From a virus (taxonomy: Duplodnaviria > Caudoviricetes): DNA of 64,000 nucleotides. Location: IMG/VR virus record IMGVR_UViG_3300036841_000085, positions 1,582 to 65,581 of that record. The stretch is one strand, 5' to 3'. Shown here in pieces: positions 1,040-60,931 of the stretch; position 1 is the first letter of the stretch; every line of letters starts with the position of its first letter. The translations under genes were made by a program, and so were the position numbers. Under the pieces are notes generated by a model. The model saw only the letters and a list, made by a program, of their open reading frames with translations. It made no database searches and had not been told where the DNA came from.

Positions 1040-1403
1040 CCAACGCGAAACAGCCACCAGGGTCTACCAGACCCTGCGTGGCGGAGCCCTGGCAGCCGAC
1101 GCAGCCCCAGGCCAGTACACGCCACTGCAGCGAGCCCTGGCGCACGCCCAGGCAGTCGGCGCGGCCAAGGTGCTGCTGGCGCTGTCGGTCGACGGCTCAG
1201 CCCACTGGCTGGCCACCGAGCACCAGGCCGTGGTCAGCCTGAAAGAACGGGTCGAGATCCAGCTGGCCGGCGTCGAACTCGCCCTGGCTGACATGCCACG
1301 AGAGGCATCTCCGGAGCCCACCGGACGCGTCAAGCCCGGAACCCCTGAATATAGCTTGACGACGGCCAACACGCCAGGAGACGCTCCGGAGGGGCTCTCC
1401 TGA
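1032..1403 (+). CDS. hypothetical protein
   Basis: Overlapping operon arrangement. Confidence 0.65.
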   Translation: MPSQRETATRVYQTLRGGALAADAAPGQYTPLQRALAHAQAVGAAKVLLALSVDGSAHWLATEHQAVVSLKERVEIQLAGVELALADMPREASPEPTGRVKPGTPEYSLTTANTPGDAPEGLS

Positions 1404-1840
1404 TGCCTCTCGTCCAGATCGACCACCTGGAGCCCGCCCAGGCCGAGACCACCGCCATGGCCATGCTGCGGGAAGCCAGCGCCGGCGCCCTGGAAGCAGC
1501 CAGCTTGCTGGCCACCCACGACAAGGCCGGCTTCCACCAGGCTATGCAAGCGCTGGTCTCCAAGCTACACACCGTCAGCGAATATGGCAAGGTGGCTTTC
1601 CTGCGTCCAGACGTGACGCCCGAGTGGGTGGTGATGGCCTACATCCAGCACTACCCGGTCGGCTACTGGCACCCGCTGTTCACCGTCAGCCACGCGGCGA
1701 TGGGTATCGACCCACGCATCAGCGATGCCCAAATCATGACCGCCCTGACCCAGTTGACCAGCCAGGGCTACCTCAAAATGAGCCACCGTGGTGGTGGCCG
1801 AGCCCAGTATCAATGGCAAGGGAGAAAATATGCCAACTGA
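1403..1840 (+). CDS. hypothetical protein, possible C-terminal winged helix
   Basis: TGATG coupling; C-terminus ALTQLTSQGYLKMS...YQW resembles wHTH. Confidence 0.6.
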   Translation: MPLVQIDHLEPAQAETTAMAMLREASAGALEAASLLATHDKAGFHQAMQALVSKLHTVSEYGKVAFLRPDVTPEWVVMAYIQHYPVGYWHPLFTVSHAAMGIDPRISDAQIMTALTQLTSQGYLKMSHRGGGRAQYQWQGRKYAN

Positions 1841-2330
1841 CCACGACGACTACCGCTCCGGCGAGTGCGCCGGCTGCGGCAACACCATCTGGGAGGGTCA
1901 GTTCTACCAGGACGACGCCGGCCAGCGCTACCATCTGCAGTGCCAGCCTGGGACCACGCCGCCGCCCGTCGAAATCACGGTCGAACAGCTGATGGGCATG
2001 GCATTCCCGGCGCCCATCAAGTGCGCCAACCATTGCGACCACGGCTGCGAGATCCCGCTGCAGCCGGGCGACAACTGGGTCAAGGTGGCGCTGGCCGAAG
2101 GCTGGACTGTCATGCGCTGGACCACCGACCACAACTCCATCGACCCTGGCCACAACGACCACGTTATGGCATTCTGCGACCCTGGCTGCGCCTACACCCA
2201 CATGCGAGCCCGGATGCTGATCGACGATCACTGGCGACCGCTACTCAGTCGGATGGACTGGGACGCCATGGCCAAGGGTGACGAGATCCTGGAAGCCCGC
2301 GAGCAGCACACCCACGAGCATGGGCACTGA
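1830..2330 (+). CDS. Cys/His-rich hypothetical protein
   Basis: GGGAG RBS before ATG 1830; CAGC...YHLQC motif. Confidence 0.65.
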   Translation: MPTDHDDYRSGECAGCGNTIWEGQFYQDDAGQRYHLQCQPGTTPPPVEITVEQLMGMAFPAPIKCANHCDHGCEIPLQPGDNWVKVALAEGWTVMRWTTDHNSIDPGHNDHVMAFCDPGCAYTHMRARMLIDDHWRPLLSRMDWDAMAKGDEILEAREQHTHEHGH

Positions 2331-2482
2331 CCTGACGCCCGGTCAGCGCCTGGTCTGCCCCGTCTGCAACGCCGCCACCCTAATCAAGTGGCGGCCCAGG
2401 CGCCGCACCATACGCTGCCAGGGCTGCCAGGCCATCATCGCCATGCGTGCCAACGACGACGACCCCGGCCGCGCCGTGAAGA

Positions 2483-2537
2483 TTAACTAATTCTTAACAC
2501 CTGGCTAACCCGCGTTTACCCATCCATGTGATTTACT
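2483..2537 (+). promoter_or_regulatory. phased-YTAAY promoter 1 (leaderless)
   Basis: TTAAC 2483, TTAAC 2494, CTAAC 2505; TGTGATTTACT 2527-2537; ATG at 2544. Confidence 0.8.
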
Positions 2538-2543
2538 TTGGGT

Positions 2544-2771
2544 ATGGCAATCAACACCACCACCCGCAACCGAGTCGCCCAGGCCGCCGCTGGCCTGCCC
2601 ACCCTCCAGGCTTGGATCGACGCCGTCAGCGCAATCAGCCCGGAGGCCGCCCAAACCGTCGAAGGCATCTACTGCGGTCGCGATGGCCGGGGCTCGTTCG
2701 AGTTCGGCCCGAAGAACTACATCGTGGTCGGCTGGCACGACGGCCGCGTCGAGTACTCGTATGTCAGCTGA
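2544..2771 (+). CDS. hypothetical protein
   Basis: Directly downstream of promoter 1. Confidence 0.7.
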   Translation: MAINTTTRNRVAQAAAGLPTLQAWIDAVSAISPEAAQTVEGIYCGRDGRGSFEFGPKNYIVVGWHDGRVEYSYVS

Positions 2772-2956
2772 CCGCCTGGTCCATTGGAGCAGCACCCCGG
2801 CGGGTGCCTGCTCCCGTAAGGATTCCGGCCAGGACGCCCTGGTCGTGAGCCCGCAGATCACCTACCCTGGCGTGGCCGACTGGCCCGGTAACGTGACCTG
2901 CCCGACCTGCTGCCGCGTCATCCGCCAGGAGCGCCGCGCCAGGAGACAGCCAAGTG

Positions 2957-3459: not shown

Positions 3460-3781
3460 CTGGCACGAGACCGAGCTACCAGGACACTGGGAATCGGCCC
3501 ACCACCGCGCCATCCGACGCAACATGGAGCAGGACATCATCCTGCTCCTGGTCTGGCGCAAGGATGACAAGCCGCTAGGCTCTGAGCACTTCTCTGTCAT
3601 GCAGTCAGCCAAGAACGCCCTGGTGGGTCGCGAGTACTATGGCTTTGAGGTCTACCCGGCCGAGAGCGAGCTACGCGACCGAGCCAACGTCTACTGGATG
3701 CATGTTTGCCCCAGGCCGAACGAAAAGCCGGACTGGGTGCGACCACAACGCAGGAGCGTAACCAATGGACTACCCAACTAA
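3449..3781 (+). CDS. conserved phage hypothetical protein
   Basis: MQSAKNALVG...EVYPAESELRDRANVYWMH motif typical of a widespread small phage protein family. Confidence 0.7.
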   Translation: MPTSWHETELPGHWESAHHRAIRRNMEQDIILLLVWRKDDKPLGSEHFSVMQSAKNALVGREYYGFEVYPAESELRDRANVYWMHVCPRPNEKPDWVRPQRRSVTNGLPN

Positions 3782-4334
3782 CCTGACCAGGGCGACGGCC
3801 GAGAACATGCTGGACGACGCCCAGCCCGGCCAGTACGTCCTGGCCACCTTCCCAGGCCGCGTCTGGATTCACTCCATCCGCCTGGACGCCAAGCAGCTGC
3901 CCAGGACCTACTGCGGCGTGCCTATTGGCGTGATCGGCAAATGGTCCCAGCAAGGATTCGGCACGGCCGACCAGGTAACCTGCGTGACCTGCTCGTCCGG
4001 CATCGCCAAGACCGAGCACGGCGAGTACATCAAGAGAGGCATTCCGGAGACCAAGGAAAGGCCATCTCGTCCTGCGGCGGTATGCTTCGCCGTCCTGGAC
4101 GACAGACGTGTTCCGAGTGCCACCGGACGCCACGTGCCAAATGTGCTCAAGAGCAACTACCACGGCGAGCCAGTCTCGCCATTCTGCACCTGGTGCGGCG
4201 CCAGCCTGACCGACCAGGAGCAGGCCGACGCCCAGGCTACCCGAGCCCTAGACGACTCGACCGTCCTGGTCGTGCGTGACGGCGACGTGGTGGTGACCAC
4301 CACCGGCGACACCGACGGTGTTAACGCTGATTAA
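3765..4334 (+). CDS. zinc-finger protein (H-xn-CG-xn-CxxC)
   Basis: HSIR...RTYCGVP...VTCVTC and CTWC. Confidence 0.7.
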   Translation: MDYPTNLTRATAENMLDDAQPGQYVLATFPGRVWIHSIRLDAKQLPRTYCGVPIGVIGKWSQQGFGTADQVTCVTCSSGIAKTEHGEYIKRGIPETKERPSRPAAVCFAVLDDRRVPSATGRHVPNVLKSNYHGEPVSPFCTWCGASLTDQEQADAQATRALDDSTVLVVRDGDVVVTTTGDTDGVNAD

Positions 4335-11195: not shown

Positions 11196-11219
11196 CACCA
11201 CCATCGAGCCCAGGCTTCA

Positions 11220-11301
11220 CCGGAGCCCTTCCGGACGGCCTCCCTTCGCAGACGGCTGCTTGGCCGCCCGGACGAACGGAGGCCGTTTCCTTGCCCTCCG
11301 G
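11220..11301. repeat. 82-bp dispersed CCGGA-N72-TCCGG element (intergenic copy)
   Basis: CCGGA 11220, CCGGA 11231, TCCGG 11297; shares GAGGCCGTTTCCTTGCCCTCCGGTG with the copy at 60838. Confidence 0.85.
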
Positions 11302-11334
11302 TGGGCCTCCCTTGTCAAGCCGGCCGCTATCGGC

Positions 11335-13307: not shown

Positions 13308-13756
13308 CTGGAGGCTTCTCCGGAGCCCACGGAGACCGCCTGGCCGTTCGAACGGCTGCTGGCAGCTTCGCTGGCGTCCAGGCCGTCCGGTGGGGCTCCG
13401 GAGGGGCTCTCCGTGGCTTCCGGCTCCAGCGGCTTGTCGCTGGGCTTGAGCACGGCATCGCAGAAGGTCAGTATGCGCCTATCGACCATCGCCCAGGGCA
13501 TCTTGTTGACCTTCTCTTTGAGGGTCTCCCAGTCGGCATCTTCCAGGGCGAGCACATCGCCACTGGCGGCGTCTAGCGCGTCCATGACCCGGATGCTCTT
13601 GCGCATCTCGTCGATGGTGGCACCTGCCTGGCGATCCAGCGGCGAGCGCAGCGCCGCCATGACCAGCTGGCGATAGTCGACCAGGTTGGCCACCGCTTCG
13701 GGCGTGCCTGGTTCGAAGCGAGTATCGGGCTCGACCAATAGTCGTATGTACTTCAT
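13304..13756 (-). CDS. tail-fibre-associated hypothetical protein
   Basis: Coupled to tail fibre gene (ATGA overlap). Confidence 0.75.
   Translation of the reverse strand: MKYIRLLVEPDTRFEPGTPEAVANLVDYRQLVMAALRSPLDRQAGATIDEMRKSIRVMDALDAASGDVLALEDADWETLKEKVNKMPWAMVDRRILTFCDAVLKPSDKPLEPEATESPSGAPPDGLDASEAASSRSNGQAVSVGSGEASS
13320..13401. repeat. 82-bp dispersed element inside 3' end of the 13304-13756 gene
   Basis: CCGGA 13320, TCCGG 13397, central ACGGCTGC. Confidence 0.8.
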
Positions 13757-21640: not shown

Positions 21641-24600
21641 CAGCCAAACGCTCCATTAGGCATCGAATCGAAAGCCTCAGTGACGTGATTGGAGAAGTTG
21701 TCCAGGTGAGCGGTCACGATCTGCCCGACCCGCTGGGCGAAAGACTCGCCATCTTCGCCCGGTTGCTGCACGATCTGTCCGATTGACACGAGAGGCCCAC
21801 CGGAGCCGCTCCGGACGGCCTGAGCGCCAGCGGCGCTACTCTGAGCCCTGCGAGCCGGGATAACGGCTTCCGGGGCTCCGGTGTTGTTCACCGCCATGGT
21901 GACGCCAGGCATGAGCAAGCCGCCCTGGTCGTATGGTTTGTAGGCACCACCAGCTGCCACGCTCTTGACACCAGGCACGTTGCTGATGTCGCCATACGCC
22001 GCCTTGATATAGGCGATGCCAGCCATGATTTGTGCCACCGGGTCCATGGGGTCCATACCCTGCGGCGTGTACTTGGAGCGATTGCTACCGGTCAGCTGCA
22101 TTAGACCCACGCTGGCGTTGCCCGCCTGGGCGTTCACGTCAGTCATGTTGGCCGCGCCTGGATTGCCGCCCGACTCATGCATCACGATGGTATTCAGGCC
22201 GCCGGCCCAGGACGCGTCCACGCCCGATGCCTTGATCGCCTGGTCGATCCAGGAGCCCACGTCACCGGTGCCGCCTGGCAGACGGCCAGATATATTGGAG
22301 CCCAGGCTGGAAAATGCCGAGCCCACCGAACTGGCGATGGTGCCCAGTACGCCTTTCAGGTCGTCACTCTTGGACTGAATGCCGGTGATCAGACCGTCCA
22401 TCATGTTGACACCGATCTGATCGCGCATATAGGTCGACGGCGAGTTGATGCCCAGTTGCTGCTTCACGAACTTGAGCCCGTCATCGACCGCGCCCCAAAT
22501 GGCGTTGCCGATAGTGGGACCTGCCGTCGACCACCAGGCAGCCACACCCTGCCACATGTTGTTCATGACACCGATCATCTCGGCGCCGAACTGACCGCCC
22601 ACCGTGGTCACGCCTTCGTGGATGGCTGAGCCCATGGCATCCATCATGTTACCGACGCCGGTGACCATCGGCGCCACCCACTCGGCCGCTCGCTGCTCCA
22701 GGGCGTTCAAGATGTCGCCCAGGTCGTCGCGCACGTTCTGCGGTATCATCTGCCAGACGTTCTGGATGGCCTGCCCGATACCCTCCAGGGCACCACCGAA
22801 GCGCCGCGCCACGTCGTCACCGTTGGTCCATAGCTCGGTCAGCCCGACGAACGGAATCGCCAGGTCGAGCGCATCGTGTGCCAGGTCGCGGATAGTGTCC
22901 CGGTTGTCGATCAGCATTTGGAAGAACGGCCGCGTCTTGTCGCCCATCTCCGGGCCAAACGTGGTCTCGATCTGATGCTGCAGGATACCGAAGGCACCGG
23001 GGTCGCCGGTCAGTCCCTCCTTGATGGCTCGGAAGCTATCCATCACGCCCGACTGGTCTATCATCGAACCCAGGTGGTCGAAGGCATCCGCCATCTTGAG
23101 GATCACATCGATGGCACCATTCAGCGGCCCGACGAACAGGCCACCGATGTCACGACTGAGCCCCTGCATACGCTGCTGCAGGATGGACATCTGCGTCTCA
23201 GGATCTTTTTGCGCCTTCGCCCAGGCTTGAGACACGTACTGACCTGTCAGCTGGTCATCATTCAGGTCTTTGAGGATCTGGTCGTAGTCGTCAGCACCCT
23301 TACCCATCAACAGCGCCGCACCGATGCCGCCGCGCTGAGCGTTGAGTAGCTTTAGGGTCTCGTCCGTGGCCTGCGCCTGGGTCAAGCCCATCTTCTGGTA
23401 GGCGTCGGTGGTCTTGGCGAAGATGCCAGTGAAGCCCAGTTGCGACACGCCGGTGGCGGTGTATGCGTCTTTCAGGTCGACGCCGGTGGTGTTGGTCAGC
23501 TTCTCAATCTCTTTTTGGGCAGCCGACGCTGGCTTGATGATGTGCGTCAGCATGTTGACCACCTGCGTCTGGCTCTCGGCCGCGTCGTAGCCATTTCTGG
23601 TCAAGGCAGCCATGGACGCGCCCACCTGGTCGAGCGGTACTCCAAGCTGGGCGGCGAAAGCCACCGCTCGCCCGCTGTTCTCAGCGAACTGCTCCATGGT
23701 CATGTTGCCTTCGGCAGCCGACACGTGCAGCACGCCCATGGCATGCGCCGCGTTCTGCGTCACCGTGGCCACGTCGCCCTGGTCCTGCTTGTACTGGTGC
23801 AGCGTCGACGCCAGGATAGTGCCTGTCTGCGCCACGTCAGCACCGGTGGACGCCGCCGCCTCCGCAGCCACTTTCATGACACCATTCATGGCGTCGGTAT
23901 TCTGCGTCAGGTCCATGATATTGCGGCTGGCTTCGATCAGCGGCGTGGTGGCGATGCCGAACTCCTGGCTGGTGTCACTGACGTTCTTGGCCAACGTAGC
24001 CATGTCCTCATTGGTCAGCGTGGTGTTGTTCTGCAGGATCATTAGCTCGTGGTTGAAGTCGGCCGCGTTCTTCGTCGCGGCACTGGCTCCGACCGCCACG
24101 GCACCTACGGCCGCTCCCACACCAGTAGCAGCACCAAGACCGCCAAGAGCCCCCAAACCGGCAACTCCACCAAGCTCTGGGGCAATGCCACTAACAACAT
24201 CTTCGCCAACTCCCAGGCTGGTCCTGGCCGCGCCACCCAGCCGACTGGCCAAGCTGGACGCGCCAGATGAGACCGTGCTGGCTGCTCGGCTGGCAGCGCT
24301 ACTGGCTTTGGCCGTGGCCGTGCCGCCGGTGCCCACCTTGACGTTGGCGCCCTTGCTCAGCTTGTCGACCTCAGTCTGGATCTGCTTTAGCCTGGTCGAT
24401 GCCTGGTCGGTCACGCCCACGCGGATGGTGGTGCGGCTGGTCTGGCTGAGCTTGGATACCTCCGTCTGAATAGCCTTCATCTTGGAAGATGCCTGGTCAT
24501 TCATGGTCAGCTTGATCTGCATGGCCTGCATCTTGGCCATGCGCTCGATCGCCTGCTGGTACTGCTTCTCTATCTGCGACAGCTGCGTCTGGAAGCGCCG

Positions 24601-24684: not shown

Positions 24685-24716
24685 GCCTCCAGGCGAGCAT
24701 ACCCAAGAGAGGCTAT

Positions 24717-24798
24717 CCGGAGACCAAGGAGACCGCCTCTGCCCGTCAGGACGGCCCGGTAGCCGTCCAGCGCCCCGCAGCGTCCGGACGGCCTCCGG
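24717..24798. repeat. 82-bp dispersed element, reverse orientation, upstream of tape measure
   Basis: CCGGA 24717, TCCGG 24794; reverse complement shares ACGGCTACCGGGCCGTCC with the 60838 copy. Confidence 0.8.
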
Positions 24799-24822
24799 AA
24801 CAGCCTGGGCCGGGAGGGTAGC

Positions 24823-36976: not shown

Positions 36977-37414
36977 CTATTTAGCGTCTACCTTCTTGAT
37001 CTGGTGTTCCAAGATGGCTCGCTCGGCGCCCGGCGTGTCACCAATCAGCTGCGGTGGCGAATCCTGGCCGGCCACGTAAGCGAAGCCACCAGGATGCGCC
37101 GGGTCCTGCTCCGAGAAGGCCACCTTGTCGTCATTGCGAGCGCTCACCACGGTGATCAGGTCGCCCAGCTTGGACGCCCGCTCGACTTCGTCGTTGATGT
37201 GCTGCAGGTGGGCTGCCTCTGCTCGCTGCCACAACTCCTGCTCGGTCATGGGCTCGTCGCCCTGGAGAGGCCCAAGGGACGTTGCCGGAGACGCCTTGAC
37301 GCTCTCGACGGGCTCTTGGGCCGCCTGCTGCGCCGACGCGTCCGGAGGGGCTCCGGAAGCGTCAGCTGAGCCAGTGGTGCTGGCGCTGCTCGTGCTACTG
37401 GTCGATTCGGCCAC
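36977..37414 (-). CDS. hypothetical capsid-associated protein
   Basis: AGGAGG RBS directly after major capsid gene. Confidence 0.75.
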   Translation of the reverse strand: MAESTSSTSSASTTGSADASGAPPDASAQQAAQEPVESVKASPATSLGPLQGDEPMTEQELWQRAEAAHLQHINDEVERASKLGDLITVVSARNDDKVAFSEQDPAHPGGFAYVAGQDSPPQLIGDTPGAERAILEHQIKKVDAK

Positions 37415-42663: not shown

Positions 42664-44574
42664 TCAATCAGTGGTGGCTTCCAGCAGACCAGTGTAGGCC
42701 GCCGGCGCCTGGTTGTCCCAACTCGCACTCATGCGCCGCAGGTCGGCCGCTCCTATCTCGACCGTGCCCTGGTGTTCTGGCAGCGGGTCACCCTCCGGTG
42801 TGAATGCCTCTTCCGGAGCCCTTCCGGATGGCCTGTTGTCGCGCACGGCTACTCCGCCGTTGAGAGAGCCAGAGGCCGTCCGGTGCGCTTCCGGTGGGCC
42901 TCCGTGGGTATCGCGCCGATAGCGTAGCGCCGGACCACGCTGGGTGAGCACGCGCAGCCAGCGACCGGGTATGCCGATCTGCCTGTCGTTGCGGCTGGCG
43001 TGCAGGTCGCTCACCTTGAGGATACCTGCCTTGACCCAGCGCTCGGCACCTTCGTCGGCCGACTCGCCGCCAGATCCCTGACCTTCGCCGTCACCCTCCT
43101 GGTCCGGCTCCTGCTCCTGGTCGCTGGTGGGCGGTGGTACTTCGGTGTACATGGGCGGCAGAATGGGCGGGAAGTCCATTAGCGCCGGGTGACCAGTGAT
43201 GGCCACCGCCGCCGCGTCGTTGTCCTGCCAGCCGTACAGCACCTTGCTGATCTCGTTCAGGATCAAGGTGGCTTCGGTCTTGGCGTCACGGTCCATCTCG
43301 CTGGCTCGTAGCTCGGCGTAACGGAACTGTACCTCCGCCTGCATACCCTGCGCCCGCAGCGCCAGGCCAAGCTGTCGCTCCCACACCGACTCGGCATAGT
43401 GCTGTATGCTCTTGAAGCCGGCCGACATAATCTCCCACTCACGATTGGCCTGCGTTTCAGTGTTGCCCTGCCTGGTGCCCATCAGCACCGGCATGGTCTT
43501 GAGCGCACGTACTGTCCAGCGCTCAATGATCTCAATAATGGCAGGCAGGGCACCCAAGCTCTGCGGCGAGACCGTGCCTACCGGCCGGTTCACCTTGACG
43601 GCGCTGGTATGCACGTAGGCGTCGTCCGGCTCCAACGTGGCGTACACCTGGCGCACTTCGTCGAACACTTTGCTGACCCAGTCGCGGTACTTGATCGGAT
43701 CGGCCAGTACCGACTTGGGCGCCTCCTTCGCCACCGCCTCCAGGTCGATCTCCAGGTCGATACGTGGCATGCCCTGCTGCGCCAGGACGCGGCGCAGGTC
43801 GTGCAGCACGCCCAGTAGGAACAGTGACGAGAACAGCGCCGGCGAGACCATGGCTCGTCCGTATGGCGTGCCCATGGCCGGATCAACCGGCACGTAGCTG
43901 ATAGTCGGCCGCTGCGACAGGTCAACCCAGCCCTTGCCTTGCTGCCACTGCCCCAGCACATCCACGGTGCCGCGTACCTGGTCAACCTCCCGCTTGAACC
44001 TGACCGTGACCGGGTCTGGCACCACCAGGTCGGCGCAGTCTCGGCCGTTCTGCGCCAGGACCAACTCGCACAACAGGGCGCCACGCATGAAAAACGACAT
44101 GGCCATACGACCGTGCACCACGTCCACCGTGCCGTACAGACCGTCCAGCAGCGCCATAATCGACTCACAGTATTGCTGGGCTGCTTCGTTCTGATTGTCA
44201 GTGCCTGGCTGCAGGCAGATAAGCTCCCAGCCAGGATTGAACAAGCGCAGGAAATCCCACAGCGCCCGGCTCACGTCCGGGCTGATGTCGGCCAGGATGT
44301 TGAGCAACTGCGACGGCGACAGCTTGGCGAAGGTGTCGGCGTCCAGGTTGAAGGTCTGCCACTCCTGCTCGTAGTCGCTGGGCGGCAGGATGGCCGGCGT
44401 CGAGCCCCAGTAGCCAGGCACATAGTCCTGGGTAAGCCGGCCACGTGGCCTGGACACGCTCGCCTGGGTAATCCAGGGCTGGTCGGGCGTGTTGCTGGTG
44501 ACCGTGGCTCGCTTGGCGTACCGCCCAAGCTCGTCCCTGGCGCGGCCGTTACGGTGCGCGACCGCCTCAGCCAC
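42664..44574 (-). CDS. portal protein
   Basis: Follows terminase; PYGRAMVSPA motif; long low-complexity C-terminal tail. Confidence 0.88.
   Translation of the reverse strand: MAEAVAHRNGRARDELGRYAKRATVTSNTPDQPWITQASVSRPRGRLTQDYVPGYWGSTPAILPPSDYEQEWQTFNLDADTFAKLSPSQLLNILADISPDVSRALWDFLRLFNPGWELICLQPGTDNQNEAAQQYCESIMALLDGLYGTVDVVHGRMAMSFFMRGALLCELVLAQNGRDCADLVVPDPVTVRFKREVDQVRGTVDVLGQWQQGKGWVDLSQRPTISYVPVDPAMGTPYGRAMVSPALFSSLFLLGVLHDLRRVLAQQGMPRIDLEIDLEAVAKEAPKSVLADPIKYRDWVSKVFDEVRQVYATLEPDDAYVHTSAVKVNRPVGTVSPQSLGALPAIIEIIERWTVRALKTMPVLMGTRQGNTETQANREWEIMSAGFKSIQHYAESVWERQLGLALRAQGMQAEVQFRYAELRASEMDRDAKTEATLILNEISKVLYGWQDNDAAAVAITGHPALMDFPPILPPMYTEVPPPTSDQEQEPDQEGDGEGQGSGGESADEGAERWVKAGILKVSDLHASRNDRQIGIPGRWLRVLTQRGPALRYRRDTHGGPPEAHRTASGSLNGGVAVRDNRPSGRAPEEAFTPEGDPLPEHQGTVEIGAADLRRMSASWDNQAPAAYTGLLEATTD
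42813..42894. repeat. 82-bp dispersed element inside portal C-terminal tail
   Basis: CCGGAGCCCTTCCGGATGGC at 42813, ACGGCTAC core, TCCGG 42890. Confidence 0.85.
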
Positions 44575-48935: not shown

Positions 48936-49169
48936 ATGCACACAATAGCAGTAGGATCGAGCGCCGGCTGGCACCTGGCCGGCTGCTCGTGCGGCTGGGT
49001 CGCCCCAGCGCCGCGCAACTTGAAGGTGGTCGCCCAGGCCGACGCCGCCAAGCACCGTAACGACAACCTGGCCGTCGCAGACTGGCGGCCGACACCCTGC
49101 ACCGAGCCCGACTGCCCGGTGTGCCAAGAGAACCACTCCGGAGCCCTTCCGGATGGCATCACCCGCTAG
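48936..49169 (+). CDS. small zinc-binding protein
   Basis: CSCGW...AAKH and CTEPDCPVC. Confidence 0.6.
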   Translation: MHTIAVGSSAGWHLAGCSCGWVAPAPRNLKVVAQADAAKHRNDNLAVADWRPTPCTEPDCPVCQENHSGALPDGITR

Positions 49170-49219
49170 CAAGCTACACTCAGCCGTCCGGAGGCAGAGG
49201 CCATCTCCTTGGCCTCCGG
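49138..49219. repeat. 82-bp dispersed element
   Basis: CCGGAGCCCTTCCGGATGGC at 49138, GCTAC core, TCCGGTGAAG 49215. Confidence 0.85.
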
Positions 49220-49242
49220 TGAAGTCACGAAAGGACAATCCA

Positions 49243-52787: not shown

Positions 52788-53056
52788 AGCGGGTGAGATC
52801 CTGGCAGACGTGATTCAGGTCGGCCACGACCTGCTCGCAATCGAAACACCAATGGTGACGCCCTCCGTGCAACTCCCGGATGCAGGACGACGCCCCGTCT
52901 GAGTGCTCACGCTGCCGCCGCTCGACCGGCACCAGTCGATTGTCAGATCGGTAGTGGCAGACTATGCACATATCACTGGTGATTGTATTGACCATGCGTC
53001 GTCTTGCATCGTTGGCTGCAAGGAGCGTACCAGCCAGCAAGGTGGCGCGGCAAGTA

Positions 53057-53767
53057 TTAGCACTTTTTGCCGTTCCGAATGATCACGAAGAAACAGTGCA
53101 CTTTGTCGGCGTGGTACTGCGTCCTGTGCTTTGGGTCGATGCGCTTGGCCTCCCGCCGTACCTTGACCAGCAGGTCACACGGCCGCATGCCTAGCTCCTG
53201 GCTCATTGCCCACAGGTGACAGTGCTCGAACTGTTGCTCGGCACCGTGCGTCTGGTCACCCAGCTTGGCCAACAGGATGCCGTCCGGCACCAGCACCTTG
53301 GCCGCCGCCTGGAGGAACTCTTCGAACGTCCAGGCGATGCTGAGCCGGTGTGCCTTTCCGGCGCCACCGGAGCCATTCCGGGACCATCTTGTCACTTCGG
53401 TAAGCGTACCATAGCGGTCGGCCCAGCCATGCTCTCCCATGCCTCCGGAGTGGCCTCCGTCCATGGCATGCGGCGGGTCGAACACCAGCAGGTCGACGCT
53501 GGACGCGGCGTAGTGCTCGTCCAGGCGCCGGTAGTCGACCTGCTCCACGTCCGGGCCGCGTGGTCGGATGTCAGCTTTGAACGTGGGCTGCAGATCCAAG
53601 CCGCGCCACATGGCGCCGCGCTCGTACGTACAATCCAGGATGACGGGCGGCCAGGGTCTCGTCCTGTCCAGGTGAAGCTCGACCGCTATATTGATAGCCT
53701 CCTGGTCCAGGGCGATCACCGACGTGAGCCGATCACGCCCGGTGAACTGGCTGCCCGTCCTGGTCAC
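53057..53767 (-). CDS. amino-type (N6-A/N4-C) DNA methyltransferase-like protein
   Basis: ILDCTY.RG SAM-binding variant, LLVFDPPH motif IV, VLVPDGILLAK. Confidence 0.75.
   Translation of the reverse strand: MTRTGSQFTGRDRLTSVIALDQEAINIAVELHLDRTRPWPPVILDCTYERGAMWRGLDLQPTFKADIRPRGPDVEQVDYRRLDEHYAASSVDLLVFDPPHAMDGGHSGGMGEHGWADRYGTLTEVTRWSRNGSGGAGKAHRLSIAWTFEEFLQAAAKVLVPDGILLAKLGDQTHGAEQQFEHCHLWAMSQELGMRPCDLLVKVRREAKRIDPKHRTQYHADKVHCFFVIIRNGKKC
53367..53448. repeat. 82-bp dispersed element inside methyltransferase gene
   Basis: CCGGAGCCATTCCGG 53367, TCCGG 53444. Confidence 0.7.
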
Positions 53768-53937
53768 TATTCCGTGCCCTGCTCCTGGTGCCAGGCCAGG
53801 AGCATCCGATAAAGCTCGCGCAGTGCCTCTACATCTTCGGGCGTCAAATCTTCCCGCTTGAGCCCGCAGATCACCACCTGGAAGTGCTCGACAGCGCTTT
53901 TCAGGTCGTCATCTTCGTCACTGGTGTCGACTATCAT
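53767..53937 (-). CDS. small hypothetical protein
   Basis: ATGA coupling to the Rpf gene. Confidence 0.55.
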   Translation of the reverse strand: MIVDTSDEDDDLKSAVEHFQVVICGLKREDLTPEDVEALRELYRMLLAWHQEQGTE

Positions 53938-54404: not shown

Positions 54405-54426
54405 CAGGAACGACCTCCGGGCTGCA

Positions 54427-54509
54427 CCGGACGGCCTCCGGACGGCCTCCGGCGCTCGCAAGCTACCAGCAGCCGTCCGGAGCGCCAAGGCGTCACGAGA
54501 TGCCTCCGG
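54427..54509. repeat. dispersed element (78-bp spacing) upstream of rpf
   Basis: CCGGA 54427, CCGGA 54438, GCTAC core, TCCGGTGAAGCC 54505. Confidence 0.8.
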
Positions 54510-54780
54510 TGAAGCCGTAGTCCACAGGACTACCGGCGTCCGAGTGCGAAGCACTCTCCCGCCCAACGGTGACGTTAAGCTCGCCAATATCTTCAAGCAA
54601 CTCGACAGACTCGGCCGCCACATCAGCGCAGCTATCCTCTAGGACCATCAGGTCGTCGAGCCCACCGCTGCGGGCTTCCATGCAGGCTAGCTCCCTAGCC
54701 TGGTTATCCGTATCAGCGTTGACGTCGGCCCAGGCGCTATATTCCTTGAGCAGGCGTACCTTGACGCGGTAACTCTTCAC
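54493..54780 (-). CDS. hypothetical protein
   Basis: AGGAGGG RBS before GTG 54780. Confidence 0.6.
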   Translation of the reverse strand: MKSYRVKVRLLKEYSAWADVNADTDNQARELACMEARSGGLDDLMVLEDSCADVAAESVELLEDIGELNVTVGRESASHSDAGSPVDYGFTGGIS

Positions 54781-55273: not shown

Positions 55274-55654
55274 TCAGAACCTCACCACCACCGGCGCGTT
55301 GATCACCTGCTCGTAGTACACCTGCTGGCGGATGGGCTTACCTTCCGCCTCCCTGATCACCTGTATCGCGCCGTCGACCAGGTCGCGTGGCAGCGTGTTA
55401 CGGTCCAGGTACGCGGAGCATAGTACGCGTAACGCGTGCAGTACGTGACCGCTGGTACCGGTCTTGGACAGGCTGCCTATCAGCTTGACCAGGCTGGTGT
55501 AGCACTCCAGGCAGACAGCCCACTGCGAGATGTCCTGGTCGGGCGCTGGCGTGCCGGTCACGAACGACATACGCGGCGGCCCAACCGGGTTGACCACTTC
55601 CACGCCGCACCATTCACACACCCGATGGTATGCCCCGTCATCGCCTGGTTGCAC
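55274..55654 (-). CDS. zinc-binding hypothetical protein
   Basis: CEWC...CLEC. Confidence 0.6.
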   Translation of the reverse strand: MQPGDDGAYHRVCEWCGVEVVNPVGPPRMSFVTGTPAPDQDISQWAVCLECYTSLVKLIGSLSKTGTSGHVLHALRVLCSAYLDRNTLPRDLVDGAIQVIREAEGKPIRQQVYYEQVINAPVVVRF

Positions 55655-56120
55655 GTTTCACCCTCACCTTCGGCTGAGTCGGCACTTCCGAGTACGCCGC
55701 GTCAATGATATCACGAATCGGCCCGCCACGTTTAGCCAGCTGGTTGGCAACCGTTTTGTTGGGCCGGCGCTCGGGCTGCGGTGGCTGCGGCGCCACCCTG
55801 TCCCACTCTTCTGGCGTCAGGTAGGCTTGCAGGTCGGCTAGTACCTCCAGGTTACACACCCACTCCCGCCCGACATCCAGCGCCGCCACCAGGCCGAACC
55901 CGTCCACCATCTCGCTACCGCCGCGCCGCCGCAGTCGGTCGATAATCTCCAGGGTCAGCGTTGTCTCGGCCTGGCGAAGCTGACCCAATAGCGTCTGGAC
56001 GCGCTCCAATGCCTGAACCAGGATTGGGTCTGATTCCCAATCCTTCAAGTTGGCCAGGTCGTCGTACTCCCGGCCGGTCTCGGCCCAGCCGCCCAGCAAC
56101 AGTACCGCTCCGTCAGGCAT
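55638..56120 (-). CDS. hypothetical protein, possibly Gam/gp157-like
   Basis: Helical N-half and KVRVK C-terminus; weak similarity only. Confidence 0.5.
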   Translation of the reverse strand: MPDGAVLLLGGWAETGREYDDLANLKDWESDPILVQALERVQTLLGQLRQAETTLTLEIIDRLRRRGGSEMVDGFGLVAALDVGREWVCNLEVLADLQAYLTPEEWDRVAPQPPQPERRPNKTVANQLAKRGGPIRDIIDAAYSEVPTQPKVRVKRATRR

Positions 56121-56511
56121 CGTCGACCGTGACCACCACGGCATTCCCCGCAGACGATTGCTGATGCCTAATGCGTTCCTCAAGATGCAGGTCGTCCGAC
56201 GCACTCACCATCAAGGTAGCCATTTCTCTCGCCCAGTCGTGCCAAAACTGATTGTCTCGCCAGGTCGTACACCATTGAGAATCGGCAGTATCTCTGTAGT
56301 GCGGCAACGACACTTGCTTGAATTGCACTAACAGGTTGTAAGCCAAAGCCTCCACCCGGCGCATCTTCCTGCGCATCTCTGGCTGATGCCCAGGACTATT
56401 GTCCTGCTTGAAACTGGTCAAGTGCTCTTGGATACTGCCTAGGTGCCACGTGAACCCGTAGATGTCCGTCTGTGCCGGCCTAATCAGCGGCGCGGTCTGT
56501 CTGTCGTCCAT
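56113..56511 (-). CDS. hypothetical protein
   Basis: GGAGAAAC RBS. Confidence 0.65.
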   Translation of the reverse strand: MDDRQTAPLIRPAQTDIYGFTWHLGSIQEHLTSFKQDNSPGHQPEMRRKMRRVEALAYNLLVQFKQVSLPHYRDTADSQWCTTWRDNQFWHDWAREMATLMVSASDDLHLEERIRHQQSSAGNAVVVTVDDA

Positions 56512-56525
56512 TGTTTCTCCCTCAG

Positions 56526-56951
56526 CTATGTTAGTTCGTCGCTGTCAGGCAAGGTCAGCCAGCCCTGGCGCAACAGCAGGTCAAGAATGGCGTAGTTTAC
56601 GATATCGCGCAGGTCATCCTCCACGCTCTCGGTAGCCTCATAGCCAGTCGGCAGGTGCTGGCTCAGGATCTCAGCCGGAATGCCGTACTGCGTAGCCTGG
56701 GCGACAAAGCTGGCCAGCTGCGCCGCTGCCAGGACCCGCTCGCCCTTGTCGCGCACCAGGCGATTGATAATGCCTGGCTCGCCCTGCTCCACCAGGTTGG
56801 CCACGCCACGCATACGGTGTTTCTGCAACAGGATCGCCCAACAGCGCGAGATCTCCAGGGCTGCCGCCGCCTCAAAGGTGGTGGGCGGCCCGCTGCCCAG
56901 GCCGTCGATAATCGCCCGCAGGTCCACCGCCGCCCGCAGGTCGTCAGGCAT
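56526..56951 (-). CDS. MazG-like all-alpha NTP pyrophosphatase (DUF1599/Nmad1-like)
   Basis: LLQKH...ANL, DKGER, ESVEDDLRDIVNYAIL. Confidence 0.75.
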   Translation of the reverse strand: MPDDLRAAVDLRAIIDGLGSGPPTTFEAAAALEISRCWAILLQKHRMRGVANLVEQGEPGIINRLVRDKGERVLAAAQLASFVAQATQYGIPAEILSQHLPTGYEATESVEDDLRDIVNYAILDLLLRQGWLTLPDSDELT

Positions 56952-57465
56952 CCGACGAGCCGAACCCTGACGTACCGCGCACGGTCTCGGGCAGCTTATC
57001 CACTTCCACCCAGGGCGGCGTCAGCGCTGGGAAAATAAGCACCTGCTTGAGTCGGGCGTCGGGCTCGACAAACACTGGCTCGTCGCCAGGATTGAACACG
57101 CCCGACAGTAGCTCGCCGGTGTACTCCGTGTCGATGATGCCCTGCATGCTGATCAGACCACGGTTGCGCCAGGTCGACGAGCGGCCAGTGATCATTGCCC
57201 ACAGCCCGGCCGGCAGCTTGATGGCGATACCGCTGTGAAAGCTGACGTAGCTGTGCGGCGGCACGAAGCCTCCGTCCAGGCAGACCAGGTCGAAACCCAC
57301 GTCTCCTGGCTTGGCCAGCTTGGGCGTGACCGCCTCCGGCCGCAACTTGACGAACTGTATCGGTCGCTCCATGGCCTGCCGCCACTGATCCATCTGTGAC
57401 TCGGCCCAGTGCTGCTCCATCACCTGTCGAACATGCCCCACGTCGGGCGGCCGTCTGTCAGGCAT
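56944..57465 (-). CDS. dut: trimeric dUTPase
   Basis: All five motifs: GFDL, GRSS, GIIDTEYTGE, RLKQ, RGTSGFGSS. Confidence 0.92.
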   Translation of the reverse strand: MPDRRPPDVGHVRQVMEQHWAESQMDQWRQAMERPIQFVKLRPEAVTPKLAKPGDVGFDLVCLDGGFVPPHSYVSFHSGIAIKLPAGLWAMITGRSSTWRNRGLISMQGIIDTEYTGELLSGVFNPGDEPVFVEPDARLKQVLIFPALTPPWVEVDKLPETVRGTSGFGSSDA

Positions 57466-57512
57466 AGCGTCTCCGTCTGCATCGTGATTGTTTCTCCTGT
57501 ATTGTTAGCTTA

Positions 57513-58718
57513 TCAGGCCGTAGCTGTCTTTGGCAAGTCCAGCCGGCCGCGCCGGCGCAGGGACGAGACCCAGGCGTCATGGTTCCAGCGGTCTGGCCGC
57601 TGCATGGACGGGCGCCGATCGATCAGTATGTCAGGACCGGTACCAACGAACCAGATCCTCACGCCCAGGTGGTGCTCCATCTTAGAGACCCACTCGGCAG
57701 CCTTCGGGTGATTGTCGCACAGGTCGGCCCAGGTGGTCACGCCGGCCGCGTCCGGGAACAGATAGTCCAGGAAGGTGACGGCCAGGCCGTCTGGCGCATT
57801 CAGATCAATGGCTTGCTTGGCCAGGTCGCCGTCCCAGGCGCCGATACGTCGTGGCTTCCTGGTCACCGTGGTGAACTCGACCAGGTCTTTGATACCGGTC
57901 ATGCGCTGCATGGTCGCCCAGTCCACTTCGCCCTTCATCGGCCCGCTGTTGCCAGCCACCCGGATCGGGCAGGTACGGAACACCACGATGACGGACGACA
58001 CATGCTGCGGTGCCAGGCCAGCGTCGGCCGCCATCTGCGCCGCATTAGTGTCGTGGTTGGTAGTGAACGGCCAGGTGCCATGAATGACCGACAAGCCGGT
58101 GCCCTGCGTACCTTCCAGCAGGATGGGCATTCCGCCAGACCTGACCGCGTCGGCCAGGAACCCGGCCGTGTTGGGCCGCAGGATGGGCTCCAGCCAGGGC
58201 TCGCTGTCCAGCATATTCTCGGCCCGCTCGAACATCAGCGTGTTGCGCTGCAGTCGGGCGATGCGTGCCACGCCAACTCCCTCACCGGTCGAGCCATAGC
58301 GCCGGTGGGCTTCGCCGTGTACGCCGCCCGCTTCGTCACGGTGTTCCGGGCTGATGATGCCAGCGTGCGTGTCTAGCCAGATGCGCTGTTCGATGGGCTC
58401 ACGCAGCGTCATCTGCTTGGTCTCCATCATGGTCTGCTCAAAGGCACGGATGGCGTCCATCTCCCGCTTGAGCACTTCCAGGCTGACCAGGGCTCCTGGC
58501 GTCAGGATCAGGCGGCCTACCGGGTTGGTCCAGCCGACCGGCACCTGTTGCATCGGCCACTTTTTGCCCAGGTAACTGAAAGTATGCCCAGCGTTCGGCC
58601 CGCCCGACCTGACGTGCACGGCGAACTCGTCGGCCAGATAGTGGGCGATAGAGCCCTTGCCTTCCGAGCCGTACTGACCGCCCACCAGGGCGACCACGGC
58701 GCTCCTGCTGTCAGGCAC
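57513..58718 (-). CDS. purZ: PurA-family synthetase with PurZ/PurZ0 signature (2-aminoadenine pathway)
   Basis: GGQYGSEGKG (Ser where PurA has the catalytic Asp), GGPNAGH, EGTQG, PIRVAGNSGP, TTVTRKPRR, TFLD. Confidence 0.85.
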   Translation of the reverse strand: MPDSRSAVVALVGGQYGSEGKGSIAHYLADEFAVHVRSGGPNAGHTFSYLGKKWPMQQVPVGWTNPVGRLILTPGALVSLEVLKREMDAIRAFEQTMMETKQMTLREPIEQRIWLDTHAGIISPEHRDEAGGVHGEAHRRYGSTGEGVGVARIARLQRNTLMFERAENMLDSEPWLEPILRPNTAGFLADAVRSGGMPILLEGTQGTGLSVIHGTWPFTTNHDTNAAQMAADAGLAPQHVSSVIVVFRTCPIRVAGNSGPMKGEVDWATMQRMTGIKDLVEFTTVTRKPRRIGAWDGDLAKQAIDLNAPDGLAVTFLDYLFPDAAGVTTWADLCDNHPKAAEWVSKMEHHLGVRIWFVGTGPDILIDRRPSMQRPDRWNHDAWVSSLRRRGRLDLPKTATA

Positions 58719-58917
58719 TGGCCACTTCCTTCTCCAATGACTGCAGGTAGGCTTCGATGTCGGCCACCCTGATCAGGCGCCGGTTGCCATCCTTGACCGA
58801 CCGCAGCTTGCCGTCGCGCACCATGCGGTACACCAGCAGCCGACTGCAGCCCAGCATCTGCGCTGCCTCCGCCGGTCGAACCACTATGCGATTGTCCGTG
58901 ACCTGGTCTTTTGCCAT
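58711..58917 (-). CDS. excisionase-like HTH DNA-binding protein
   Basis: EAAQMLGCSRLLVYRMVRDGKLRSVKDGNRRLI; promoter TGTGTTAAAAT upstream. Confidence 0.85.
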   Translation of the reverse strand: MAKDQVTDNRIVVRPAEAAQMLGCSRLLVYRMVRDGKLRSVKDGNRRLIRVADIEAYLQSLEKEVASA

Positions 58918-58965
58918 ACGTCTTTCCTCATGCTCCCGATTTTAACACAGGCGATACAGCGCGAG

Positions 58966-59373
58966 CTAAAAGGGCTCAACCTGACGCAGATCGATCGCCC
59001 GTTTGATCTGCTGCAATGCCTGGCCGCTGATTATCTGTGAGCCGGTGACCCGTACACCCAGCCAGCCCAGCATGGCGGCTTCGGTGTGCTTCTCCAGATC
59101 CTCTGCCAGGCTGTCCACCGTACCCACCTTCACTTTGTGCGTCCGGCCATACACATCCTTGATTGGTTTGTATAACGTACGTATACCACGGTGGCGCATT
59201 TGCGCACCCATGCCACCCTCTACCGATAGGTACACCATGAGCTTCGGCCAGGCGAAGTCCAACTCCCACTTGCGAGCAGTATGAAAGCGGTAATCCCGCG
59301 TCCAGGCCGGCAGCTTGGCCAACCGCATCTGCGTGGCCATGGCGGTCTCCAGGCCACTAGGCGGTCCCGGCAT
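58966..59373 (-). CDS. Vsr/DUF559-like PD-(D/E)XK endonuclease
   Basis: YRFHTARKWELDFAWP...VEGG...AAMLGW. Confidence 0.8.
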   Translation of the reverse strand: MPGPPSGLETAMATQMRLAKLPAWTRDYRFHTARKWELDFAWPKLMVYLSVEGGMGAQMRHRGIRTLYKPIKDVYGRTHKVKVGTVDSLAEDLEKHTEAAMLGWLGVRVTGSQIISGQALQQIKRAIDLRQVEPF

Positions 59374-59584
59374 GCTCACAGTCCACGTAGTGCAACACGG
59401 CGCTGGCGTACCACGGAGGATCACCACGCTCGCCAGATTCCCAGATCGACACGTTCCGACCGGTCATGCCCAGCAACACCGCCATCTGACGAATGGACAG
59501 GCCGTGCTCCTGGCGCCAGCGGCGCACATCCTCCGACCGCCACTGCGGTATCTTATTGATTGGACCGGCCAACTTGCTCGGCAT
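59357..59584 (-). CDS. XRE-type HTH protein
   Basis: RRWRQEHGLSIRQMAVLLGMTGRNVSIWESG. Confidence 0.8.
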   Translation of the reverse strand: MPSKLAGPINKIPQWRSEDVRRWRQEHGLSIRQMAVLLGMTGRNVSIWESGERGDPPWYASAVLHYVDCEHAGTA

Positions 59585-60173
59585 ACTTAACCTCACGAAT
59601 CCTGGCGATGTACCACTCGACCATCCTGACGCACTCCCTGTCGCACCAGTGCTGATGGGCACTGACCGGCTGACCGTCCGGGCGCTGGCCGCGCCGCAGG
59701 TCTGCCCTGGTCGGATGCCCCTTGACATGGGAATACTCGAGCCGTCCAACTCCATGCAGGGCTTCCACCACGCGACCGACCATCCACAGCGGTATGGTCT
59801 TTGGATCGAGCAGCACCCTACCCGACAGACGAGCGATGGTCACGCTGGAATCCGTCACCACCTGGCCGCTCCACCCAGGCGGGCGGTGCTCCAGGCCGCA
59901 AGTGACCGCCATAAGCTCGGCATGATTGTTACTGACCAGGACACCATCGTCCGGACCGACGAACTCAACCACGTCAATCTTGAGGATATCCAACGAAGCC
60001 TCAAGCTGTCTAGCCGCCCTGACGAGCAGCCGGTCGGCCACCGGCACCAGCACGCCGCGCCCTTCGTCCAGGACACGGTGGTCGGCCACCAGGCGCCAGG
60101 CGAACACGCCGCCGTAGCTGGATGGGTTCTTGCCCACCACGCCGCCGTCAGCGTACAAGATCTCAACCGGCAT
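59553..60173 (-). CDS. ribonuclease H-like protein
   Basis: YADGG, NNHAELMA, TDS, HVKGH, CDR motifs. Confidence 0.88.
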   Translation of the reverse strand: MPVEILYADGGVVGKNPSSYGGVFAWRLVADHRVLDEGRGVLVPVADRLLVRAARQLEASLDILKIDVVEFVGPDDGVLVSNNHAELMAVTCGLEHRPPGWSGQVVTDSSVTIARLSGRVLLDPKTIPLWMVGRVVEALHGVGRLEYSHVKGHPTRADLRRGQRPDGQPVSAHQHWCDRECVRMVEWYIARIREVKYAEQVGRSNQ

Positions 60174-60360
60174 CGCTCTTGATGATAGCTGCCAGGCGCT
60201 CCAGGCAGCGCCGACAGACCCAGCAGCCGTGGCAGCGTAGCTGGATGCACATTTGGGTCTGGCCGCACTCGGAGCATTTGGCGCTGACCGCCCTGAAATG
60301 CGCCTGGTCCACGTCGGGCTCGGCCGGCCGGGTGCTACTGGCGGTGAAGCTGACCGTCAC
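60163..60360 (-). CDS. small zinc-finger protein
   Basis: CSEC...CRRC. Confidence 0.5.
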   Translation of the reverse strand: MTVSFTASSTRPAEPDVDQAHFRAVSAKCSECGQTQMCIQLRCHGCWVCRRCLERLAAIIKSDAG

Positions 60361-60607
60361 GCCTGCGTCATGCCAGGGTTGATCGGCCGCAGTACCTCTT
60401 CGAAGAACGCGTCCCAGGCTTGCCCGAGATAGTTGCTCACCGGCCGCTCACCTTACCCCAGTCCACTGTCTTGCCCCGCTTCTTGGCCTCTTTCGCCTGC
60501 TCTGCCTCCTGGCGCTGCGCCTGCCGCTTGGCGAGTACCTCCCTGGCGTGAGCGAACAGGCCGATCTGCTGCATGTAGTCGTTCATCGTTGGAGCACTGG
60601 CCACTGA

Positions 60608-60931
60608 CTAGCGCATGCCGGACTGGGTCGGCAGGCGCTGCCGCTTGTAGGTCATCTTGCAGGCCGGGCATAGCGCTATCTCGGGCGTCACCCATACCAA
60701 CTCGTGGTCGTCGCCCTTGGCACGGCCTGGTTCCATATCCAATGTTGCCATCTGTCGCTCGGCCTCCTGGTCGGCTCGTCGTCTACGCTCTGTCTCCTGG
60801 TCGAACGCCCGGTCCCAGGCGTTGCTCCGGCCGTATTCCGGACGGCCACCGGATGGCCTCTGTCTCTTTGAACGGCTACCGGGCCGTCCGGAGCCAGAGG
60901 CCGTTTCCTTGCCCTCCGGTGAAGCCGTCAC
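60608..60931 (-). CDS. hypothetical protein
   Basis: Coupled to DnaC-like gene; CPAC motif. Confidence 0.5.
   Translation of the reverse strand: MTASPEGKETASGSGRPGSRSKRQRPSGGRPEYGRSNAWDRAFDQETERRRRADQEAERQMATLDMEPGRAKGDDHELVWVTPEIALCPACKMTYKRQRLPTQSGMR
60838..60919. repeat. 82-bp dispersed element
   Basis: CCGGA 60838, CCGGA 60849, ACGGCTACC core, TCCGGTGAAGCC 60915. Confidence 0.85.

Follow-up and report, generated by a model that had tools for sequence, protein, structure and literature searches.

A phage genome recovered from soil metagenomes carries a family of interspersed imperfect palindromes, each about 100–116 bp long and made of CCGGA boxes, whose members prefer the 3′ ends of genes, a conclusion in which we have very high confidence. 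The stretch analysed here (the window) covers 64,000 of the 65,581 bases of IMG/VR virus record IMGVR_UViG_3300036841_000085, and within it we count seven strong copies, two further copies supported by a sequence profile and three marginal ones. The family is unusually large for a phage repeat and constant in length, and its building block is a 10-mer found nowhere else in the genome. As a sequence family it is new; its kind is already known from bacterial chromosomes and some actinobacteriophages.

An interspersed palindrome of fixed length

The pattern CCGGA-N72-TCCGG occurs eight times in the window, at 11220, 13320, 21800, 24717, 42813, 49138, 53367 and 60838, whereas 100 dinucleotide shuffles average 0.07 matches and never reach eight. 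A previous reading of this DNA from sequence only had reported boxes exactly 77 bp apart at these eight sites and a copy one base longer at 54427, and both claims are borne out, the latter copy having a core of 83 nt. A stricter signature that includes a central GCTRC matches 7 of 7 strong copies and nothing in 100 shuffles. Start-to-start distances from CCGGA to TCCGG form isolated sharp peaks at 10, 49, 66 and 77, and the motif pairs are therefore parts of one repeated unit. Four of the matches lie within open reading frames (ORFs), whereas the codon-preserving control that the sequence-only reading had called for (81-gene set, 300 shuffles) yields 0.09 on average and 2 at most; as this shuffle abolishes in-ORF matches, protein sequence and codon usage do not create the pattern. 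Codon-position G+C periodicity collapses within every copy, and the in-ORF copies are read in differing frames and strands, so that no shared peptide explains them. Together with a search of Rfam that returns no match at gathering thresholds or at E ≤ 0.5, these results sustain the earlier claim of a genuine fixed-length element that protein sequence does not explain.

To delimit the family we built a profile (nhmmer) from the seven strong copies after orienting them. The profile regains its training copies at 63–82 bits, as expected by construction, and also picks up two copies on which it was not trained, at 21800 (17.3 bits, E = 1.8 × 10−4) and 37289–37359 (15.7 bits, E = 5.6 × 10−4). Scores are marginal at 4036 (E = 0.25–0.39), at 1304 (E = 0.36) and at 53367 (E = 1.9), the last of which keeps the exact spacing. 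The looser copies proposed from sequence fare unevenly: the one at 37289–37359 is supported and those at 1304 and 4036 are marginal, whereas a site at about 6–86 has no match and another at 48466–48489 reaches only E = 7. Pairwise identity among strong copies is 63–73%, versus 52 ± 2.7% for random 100-nt windows, and the strong copies are roughly equidistant from one another in a star-like pattern. The copies are listed here with coordinates, strand and position; z is the score of the predicted RNA fold.

11211..11310, + strand: strong copy (11220), between convergent genes (+ strand gene stop 11195, − strand gene stop 11335); fold −55.7 kcal/mol, z −4.75
13311..13410, − strand: strong copy (13320), at a convergent junction, 4–13 nt past + strand stop 13307; z −3.99
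24708..24807, − strand: strong copy (24717), intergenic, 16 nt after the stop of a 48-aa ORF (24823) and 24 nt upstream of the tape-measure start (24684); z −4.16
42804..42903, + strand: strong copy (42813), inside the portal ORF (42664–44574, − strand), 150 nt ahead of its stop in a C-terminal linker that is variable; z −2.11
49129..49228, + strand: strong copy (49138), between two + strand genes; z −2.65
54418..54518, + strand: strong copy with an 83-nt core (54427), between two − strand genes; z −5.43
60829..60928, + strand: strong copy (60838), 1–9 nt after the stop of a DnaC-like loader gene (60928), next ATG at 60749; z −4.56
21791..21890, + strand: degenerate, untrained copy (21800), inside the tape-measure ORF at residues ~935–962; 17.3 bits, E = 1.8 × 10−4
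37289..37359, − strand: shortened copy, 72 nt between end boxes; 15.7 bits, E = 5.6 × 10−4
1298..1413, no strand assigned: marginal copy at the 3′ terminus of ORF 1032–1403, overlapping the next start at 1403; 79 nt between end boxes; E = 0.36
4036..4136, no strand assigned: marginal, rearranged copy inside ORF 3765–4334; E = 0.25–0.39
53358..53457, no strand assigned: doubtful copy (53367) inside the DNA methyltransferase ORF, with the exact 77-bp spacing; E = 1.9

The unit is bounded by an outer inverted repeat, GAGAGGC-NNN-CCGGAG ... CTCCGG-NNN-GCCTCTC, which is 13–34 nt long and reaches past the 82-bp core. Inside the core lie inverted copies of the 10-mer CCGGAYGGCC and the central GCTRC, and a second CCGG sits 11 bp within the left arm; the central core and the second CCGG had been described correctly by the sequence-only reading. 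The core measures 82 bp in eight copies and 83 bp in one, and is shorter in the weak copies at 1298..1413 (79 nt between end boxes) and 37289..37359 (72 nt); the former is the longest inverted repeat of the window, with 34-nt arms that are 74% complementary, and the latter lies 66 nt beyond the stop (37425) of the major head gene, within the low-complexity N-terminus of the next ORF. Of 11 occurrences of the perfect 10-mer (or its complement) in the window, all are within elements, and 22 of 27 TCCGGA sites fall in the 12 copies. Avoidance of TCCGGA through restriction was considered and rejected, the five sites outside elements being not clearly below expectation by a rough hand estimate.

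Conservation is concentrated in blocks. The 29 invariant columns form four runs of at least four columns, compared with 0.38 in shuffles (P < 10−4), and these runs fall on two CCGGA boxes, on GCCG and on TCCGG, with a broken GCT.C block invariant as well. Exact blocks of 14–25 nt are common to different pairs of copies at different parts of the element, giving the family a mosaic character, and those reported previously are all present: 25 nt in copies 11220 and 60838, a 16-mer in 11220, 42813 and 49138, and a 15-mer at 4043 and 24716. Copies occur in both orientations, again as reported, and relative to transcription four are sense and three antisense. The proposed recurrence every 5–6.5 kb is not statistically significant, the regularity of spacing along the genome giving P = 0.08 for nine copies, 0.15 for seven and 0.03 (uncorrected) only when all 12 are included. 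As judged by eye, the borders of the nine aligned copies show no direct repeat of the kind left by target-site duplication.

Gene ends, hairpins and a tentative transcript-punctuation reading

Elements sit preferentially right after, or across, the stop codons of genes. In an automatic set of 99 genes, a gene 3′ end falls within or at most 30 nt from 5 of 7 strong copies (random expectation 0.23, P = 0.009), and another automatic set without three of the genes concerned gives 3 of 7 (P = 0.17); automatic sets call spurious long ORFs through some elements, as is common in G+C-rich DNA. Base-by-base reading of the junctions by hand places 6 of 7 at a gene 3′ end or between genes. The sequence-only reading had described the element as written through genes, which is apt for a few in-ORF copies but not for these six.

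Both convergent junctions of the region carry a copy and no other terminator-like site. In four cases where the neighbouring genes are co-directional, a ribosome-binding site or start comes 0–24 nt beyond the foot of the hairpin. At 49138 and 54427 the upstream ORF ends inside the element, with the next ribosome-binding site within 14–16 nt: the small ORF 48937–49169 ends 31 nt into copy 49138 and the following GTG start at 49244 lies 16 nt beyond it, and at copy 54427 the upstream stop (54493) is inside the element and the downstream ATG (54404) has a GGAGG ribosome-binding site abutting it. Four copies are free of coding sequence. At copy 13320 a − strand ORF (13304–13756) runs through the element and gains a tail of 33 aa. 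Homologues of this ORF found in a search of 1.84 billion representatives are mostly 95–120 residues long and match only its first 105–125 residues; the element-encoded tail is therefore an extension. Copies 11220 and 13320 are inverted relative to each other and flank a 2-kb lysis block. A segmental inversion between them was rejected, as the gene map would not become simpler. As a separate observation, an ORF of the lysis region (11739–12293) and the C-terminus of a 532-residue structural ORF (19292–20890) have a domain in common, with 33% identity over 140 residues.

On the transcribed strand, all seven strong copies fold into long hairpins with energies of −41 to −67 kcal/mol and z-scores of −2.1 to −5.4, and the opposite strands fold as well. 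The phage seems to lack ordinary intrinsic terminators: canonical hairpin-plus-T sites number 18 over 60 kb (window 1–60000), versus 24.5 expected in shuffled sequence, and a terminator scanner returns no site between 10800 and 13800, a region that includes both convergent junctions, and none at the elements.

From their position and thermodynamics, we tentatively favour, at somewhat less than even confidence, a reading in which the elements are intercistronic hairpins that punctuate transcripts in the manner of bacterial repetitive extragenic palindromic (REP) sequences and bacterial interspersed mosaic elements (BIMEs), probably with a protein reading the CCGGA boxes. Transcribed in either orientation, an element would give a long G+C-rich hairpin, which could form or protect transcript 3′ ends and separate or insulate neighbouring cistrons, and at convergent junctions the element might stop or pause opposing transcription. 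The block-wise conservation, together with the fixed length, suggests recognition of the boxes by a phage or host protein, and where an ORF runs into an element the sequence would simply be translated as a low-complexity tail or linker. The elements occupy places where terminators are expected, in a genome that seems to lack canonical ones, and if they mark transcript ends they would offer a handle on how G+C-rich actinobacterial-type phages punctuate long operons.

Several observations weigh against punctuation by RNA hairpins. The fold differs among copies, the left 10-mer pairing near position 45 in some and near position 62 in others. For a three-helix consensus of seven sequences, a sample of low power, covariation is absent: 80% of cells pair, versus 79.1% after shuffling, and pairs with changes on both sides number 4, versus 3.9 in shuffles. 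The palindromic consensus explains the pairing, and selection for RNA structure is not demonstrated. No U-tract or T-run follows the element hairpins, and the elements are therefore not canonical intrinsic terminators. The mixed orientation (four sense, three antisense) argues against a sequence-dependent function in RNA. The automatic count stands at 5 of 7, and the sixth case at a gene end depends on a small ORF called by hand (54493–54780). Lastly, the copies in the portal (a full copy), the tape measure and the methyltransferase lie in conserved ORFs, and at these sites the segments of homologues agree in length or nearly so; a pure gene-end role does not explain such copies.

Copies inside genes and competing explanations

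The only full copy well inside a conserved ORF is portal copy 42813. In portal relatives that are 71% and 68% identical, both flanks are conserved and a segment of equal length, hardly any of whose residues are identical, occupies the place of the copy; in more distant relatives the region is 24 residues shorter, by a gap that is not placeable. A conserved TGAPE motif falls in the right arm of tape-measure copy 21800, and its left arm belongs to a Gly/Ser linker that exceeds that of homologues by 5–12 residues. The interior of methyltransferase copy 53367 encodes invariant residues (W-ADRYG), and what is extra there amounts to a loop of only 3–10 residues. Near relatives of these two proteins are 71% (tape measure) and 55% (methyltransferase) identical. 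Across this comparison with protein homologues, segments at in-ORF copies are equal or nearly equal in length and the C-terminus at 13320 is shorter, and none of the portal, tape-measure and methyltransferase copies resembles a clean insertion of some 27 codons. Insertion by cutting and ligating at CCGG sites was likewise rejected, as 77 bp is not divisible by 3 and no gap of about 26 aa is seen in homologues.

A possible though doubtful alternative sees in the element a composite site at which a protein binds double-stranded DNA, with CCGGA and CCGGAYGGCC boxes at fixed distances, acting as a stoperator-like transcription roadblock or operator, or as the gyrase-, nucleoid- or packaging-related site that the sequence-only reading had proposed. 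Gene ends would then be where such sites are tolerated, and within ORFs they would be made by tolerated substitutions in linkers. This model accounts better than REP-like punctuation for the block-wise, sequence-specific conservation without covariation, for a length held strictly at 82 bp (83 in one copy) and for in-ORF copies that overlie ancestral segments of similar length instead of being clean insertions; orientation independent of transcription and confinement of the perfect 10-mer to elements also speak for it. Short dyad repeats at gene boundaries occur in other actinobacteriophages, as described in the parts of two reports drawn on here (PMC4351075, PMC3203893). Gene-end position and hairpin potential, by contrast, fit REP-like punctuation at least as well. 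A binding site on DNA has no candidate binding protein to go with it, and an association with zinc-finger genes was tried and failed, small CxxC ORFs being numerous but without a specific link to the elements, which counts against this model. At 10.5 bp per turn, none of the box spacings (11, 66 and 77 bp) makes a whole number of helical turns (our own arithmetic), regular placement along the genome is not significant and no copy lies at or next to the gene for the terminase small subunit (46738–47271); none of the partners proposed earlier (small terminase, gyrase or a nucleoid organizer) gains support.

A more specific form of the idea strikes us as decidedly unlikely. Here a protein would read four CCGGA boxes held exactly 82 bp apart in a nucleoprotein site of fixed geometry, selectively placed and written length-neutrally into tolerant linkers of essential genes (portal and tape measure), and the site would serve transcription roadblocks, genome compaction or control of ejection. 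Were it true, the phage would carry a genome-wide DNA-level code superimposed on its protein code; more generally, a binding site written into ORFs would exemplify how DNA and protein codes can overlap.

It is unlikely that the elements are selfish, non-autonomous repeats akin to REPs or to miniature inverted-repeat transposable elements (MITEs), which spread in the phage lineage, are now decaying without function and survive at gene ends and in tolerant linkers since insertions elsewhere are lethal. Terminal inverted repeats and a long-hairpin architecture fit such an origin, as do the two orientations, the ORFs extended or ended inside the element at 13320, 49138 and 54427, the gradation from full to degenerate copies and the absence of the family from relatives with 55–59% identity in hallmark proteins. 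Small mobile repeats of such size, both intragenic and intergenic, are described for bacteria in the portion of PMC2229807 used here. Against a mobile origin, no target-site duplication is visible by eye, in-ORF copies are not clean insertions when set beside homologues, and the invariant blocks and fixed length are kept despite about 30% divergence. No pair of copies is more than 73% identical, which argues against recent transposition. The 65.6-kb genome has no match to the Y1 (IS200-like/RAYT) transposase family PF01797, which was detected in control genomes, or to tyrosine recombinases (PF00589), the search having covered these two families. No copy was found in the host-like genomes searched, 401 of them giving a single chance-like match, and the two DNA runs compared show no difference in presence or absence of copies.

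Still less can be said for recombination linkers, short conserved sequences at module boundaries that promote exchange of cassettes among related phages, which we consider highly improbable. Gene-boundary position is compatible with such a role, the mosaic of exact blocks suggests recombination or gene conversion among copies and the inverted copies 11220 and 13320 bracket the lysis block. Yet no exchange is documented, dispersed repeats in one genome mainly cause deletions and inversions, and the in-ORF copies stay unexplained. An artefact of composition, with Pro-Glu, Ser-Gly and Gly-Ser-Gly codons making CCGGA in a G+C-rich genome, can be set aside almost entirely, for although the two weakest in-ORF copies coincide at one end with conserved residues (TGAPE in the tape measure, SGG in the methyltransferase), four copies are non-coding and the dinucleotide, codon-preserving and strict-signature shuffles (8 versus 0.07, 4 versus 0.09 and 7 versus 0) rule chance out for the family and leave it a possibility for copy 53367 alone.

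Related repeats, distribution and neighbouring features

Several known systems share parts of this architecture. Phage T7 has about ten long imperfect RNase III hairpins with internal loops between its genes, which shape mRNA ends and stability and all face the direction of transcription; the elements described here have no sequence relation to them. The attC sites of integrons are imperfect palindromes at gene 3′ ends with conserved end boxes and a variable centre, but the phage genome has no tyrosine recombinase, its elements are in mixed orientation to the adjacent gene and the end boxes differ.

REPs are linked to Y1 (RAYT) transposases, whereas the phage genome has no Y1 transposase. In the part of PMC3733652 drawn on here, REPs, BIMEs and tagged palindromic repeats are interspersed and lie mostly just after genes or between convergent genes, with hypothesized roles in termination, mRNA stabilization and supercoiling. 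The phage elements are similar in being interspersed imperfect palindromes at gene ends and convergent junctions, in both orientations and with the potential to form hairpins in mRNA. By contrast, the REPs described there are 20–40 bp long, carry a GTAG or CGTC tag and occur at high copy number in cellular genomes (PMC3733652). The phage unit is about 100 bp long, is present in 9–12 copies, ends in CCGGAG/CTCCGG with GAGAGGC flanks and conserves no such tag.

Correia/NEMIS, ERIC, RUP and the Rickettsia RPE are small MITE-like repeats of bacteria. Repeats of this type resemble the phage element in the material available from PMC2229807, being about 100–150 bp long with terminal inverted repeats and long hairpins, and sometimes lying in frame inside genes or altering the 3′ ends of ORFs. 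The phage copies differ in that they show no visible target-site duplication and no insertion polymorphism between the two DNA runs compared, are only 63–73% alike, keep a fixed core and include no clean in-ORF insertion.

Closest in setting are two groups of mycobacteriophage repeats, the 17-bp dyad repeat of Cluster O and the SAS/ESAS of Cluster K, which stand at gene boundaries and are functionally unexplained in the sections of PMC4351075 and PMC3203893 that were available. According to the same sections, they are lineage-restricted dyad repeats between ORFs or near ORF ends and are absent from the hosts examined, and the orientation of the Cluster O repeat has no meaningful relation to transcription, all of which likens them to the present family. 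The differences are that those motifs are 13–17 bp long, or consist of two 17-bp half-sites with a variable spacer upstream of starts, and that Cluster O phages have more than 30 copies each compared with far fewer here (PMC4351075, PMC3203893, within the same limits). The element in our phage is a composite of 100 bp and fixed length that follows stop codons. It belongs with these boundary repeats as a lineage-specific dyad repeat at gene boundaries not found elsewhere, which makes a descriptive class and not a homologous family. A keyword search of the literature returned no phage repeat of such size and architecture, a result that does not show absence from print.

We use lineage-specific to mean not found in the collections searched, namely IMG/VR, JGI metagenomes, GenBank phages and the genomes named here. 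In IMG/VR, the 16-mer occurs at 22 loci and gapped patterns give 38 loose matches, none confirmed by the profile or otherwise, and no strict match; JGI metagenomes give three single matches, at chance level. There is no profile match among 25 loci from terminase relatives and no match in 80 loci from portal relatives (1 Mb). The profile scan that the sequence-only reading had recommended recovers the seven training copies and two others in this genome, but in the complete records of the two closest relatives that could be retrieved (G407 and G001) it finds nothing below E = 0.1, and the loose pattern occurs there only at chance-like frequency and with variable span. Five actinobacterial genomes yield no match, and 401 Mycobacteriales genomes yield one that is isolated and chance-like. 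Among GenBank phages, two copies have no blastn match and 8 kb of the window have no megablast match. Contigs from the soil runs show no variants within five elements, where only about 0.5 were expected.

Structural genes recognized by family searches are those for a tail sheath, an XkdN-like tail protein, a tape measure, a major head protein and a portal; both terminase genes (small and large subunit) were recognized as well, as were genes for a DnaC-like loader and a DNA methyltransferase. By this gene content the virus is a tailed phage whose tail is contractile. The terminase or portal of the nearest retrievable relatives is only 55–59% identical. The virus record is a single contig classed as linear and about 78% complete, its G+C content is 62–66% (about 64%) and an ARAGORN scan finds no tRNA genes. 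Four soil-metagenome DNA runs carry the phage nearly whole and two soil metatranscriptome runs hold small shares of it; with the phage known from metagenomes only and no host identified, the practical value of the elements is limited.

Short metatranscriptome contigs from two soil runs are at least 99% identical to parts of the portal, terminase and replication regions (42000–47363, 52334–53931 and 59010–61064), and phage sequence is thus present in soil RNA libraries, where carry-over of DNA is possible. These contigs are sparse; one ends at 42893 and one begins at 60903, at or inside elements, but as single low-depth contigs they are not evidence. An apparent contig joint from 42834 to 60897 proved to be copy 11220 mapping onto two other copies.

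Other features of the window stand apart from the element. The ORF that contains the marginal copy at 4036 (3765–4334) is one of three paralogues, with 47377–47976 and 48070–48933, that are 35–39% identical over 49–225 residues, and two accessory regions are rich in additional small CxxC ORFs. A 48-codon ORF (24823–24969) with good codon periodicity separates the XkdN-like gene from the tape measure, in the place expected for a second tail chaperone product or frameshift extension. Short inverted and direct repeats of the type GGACCAGCCGGGCCG cluster at 35746–36443, inside a 2141-codon ORF (30540–36965), and look like a repetitive coding region. Well-matched palindromes with TTAACACTC, unrelated to the element, lie between genes in the rightward accessory region at 47990–48046, 49476–49500 and 50644–50686; their arms include 24 nt at 88% and 16 nt at 94% complementarity, and they may be operator- or promoter-like sites.

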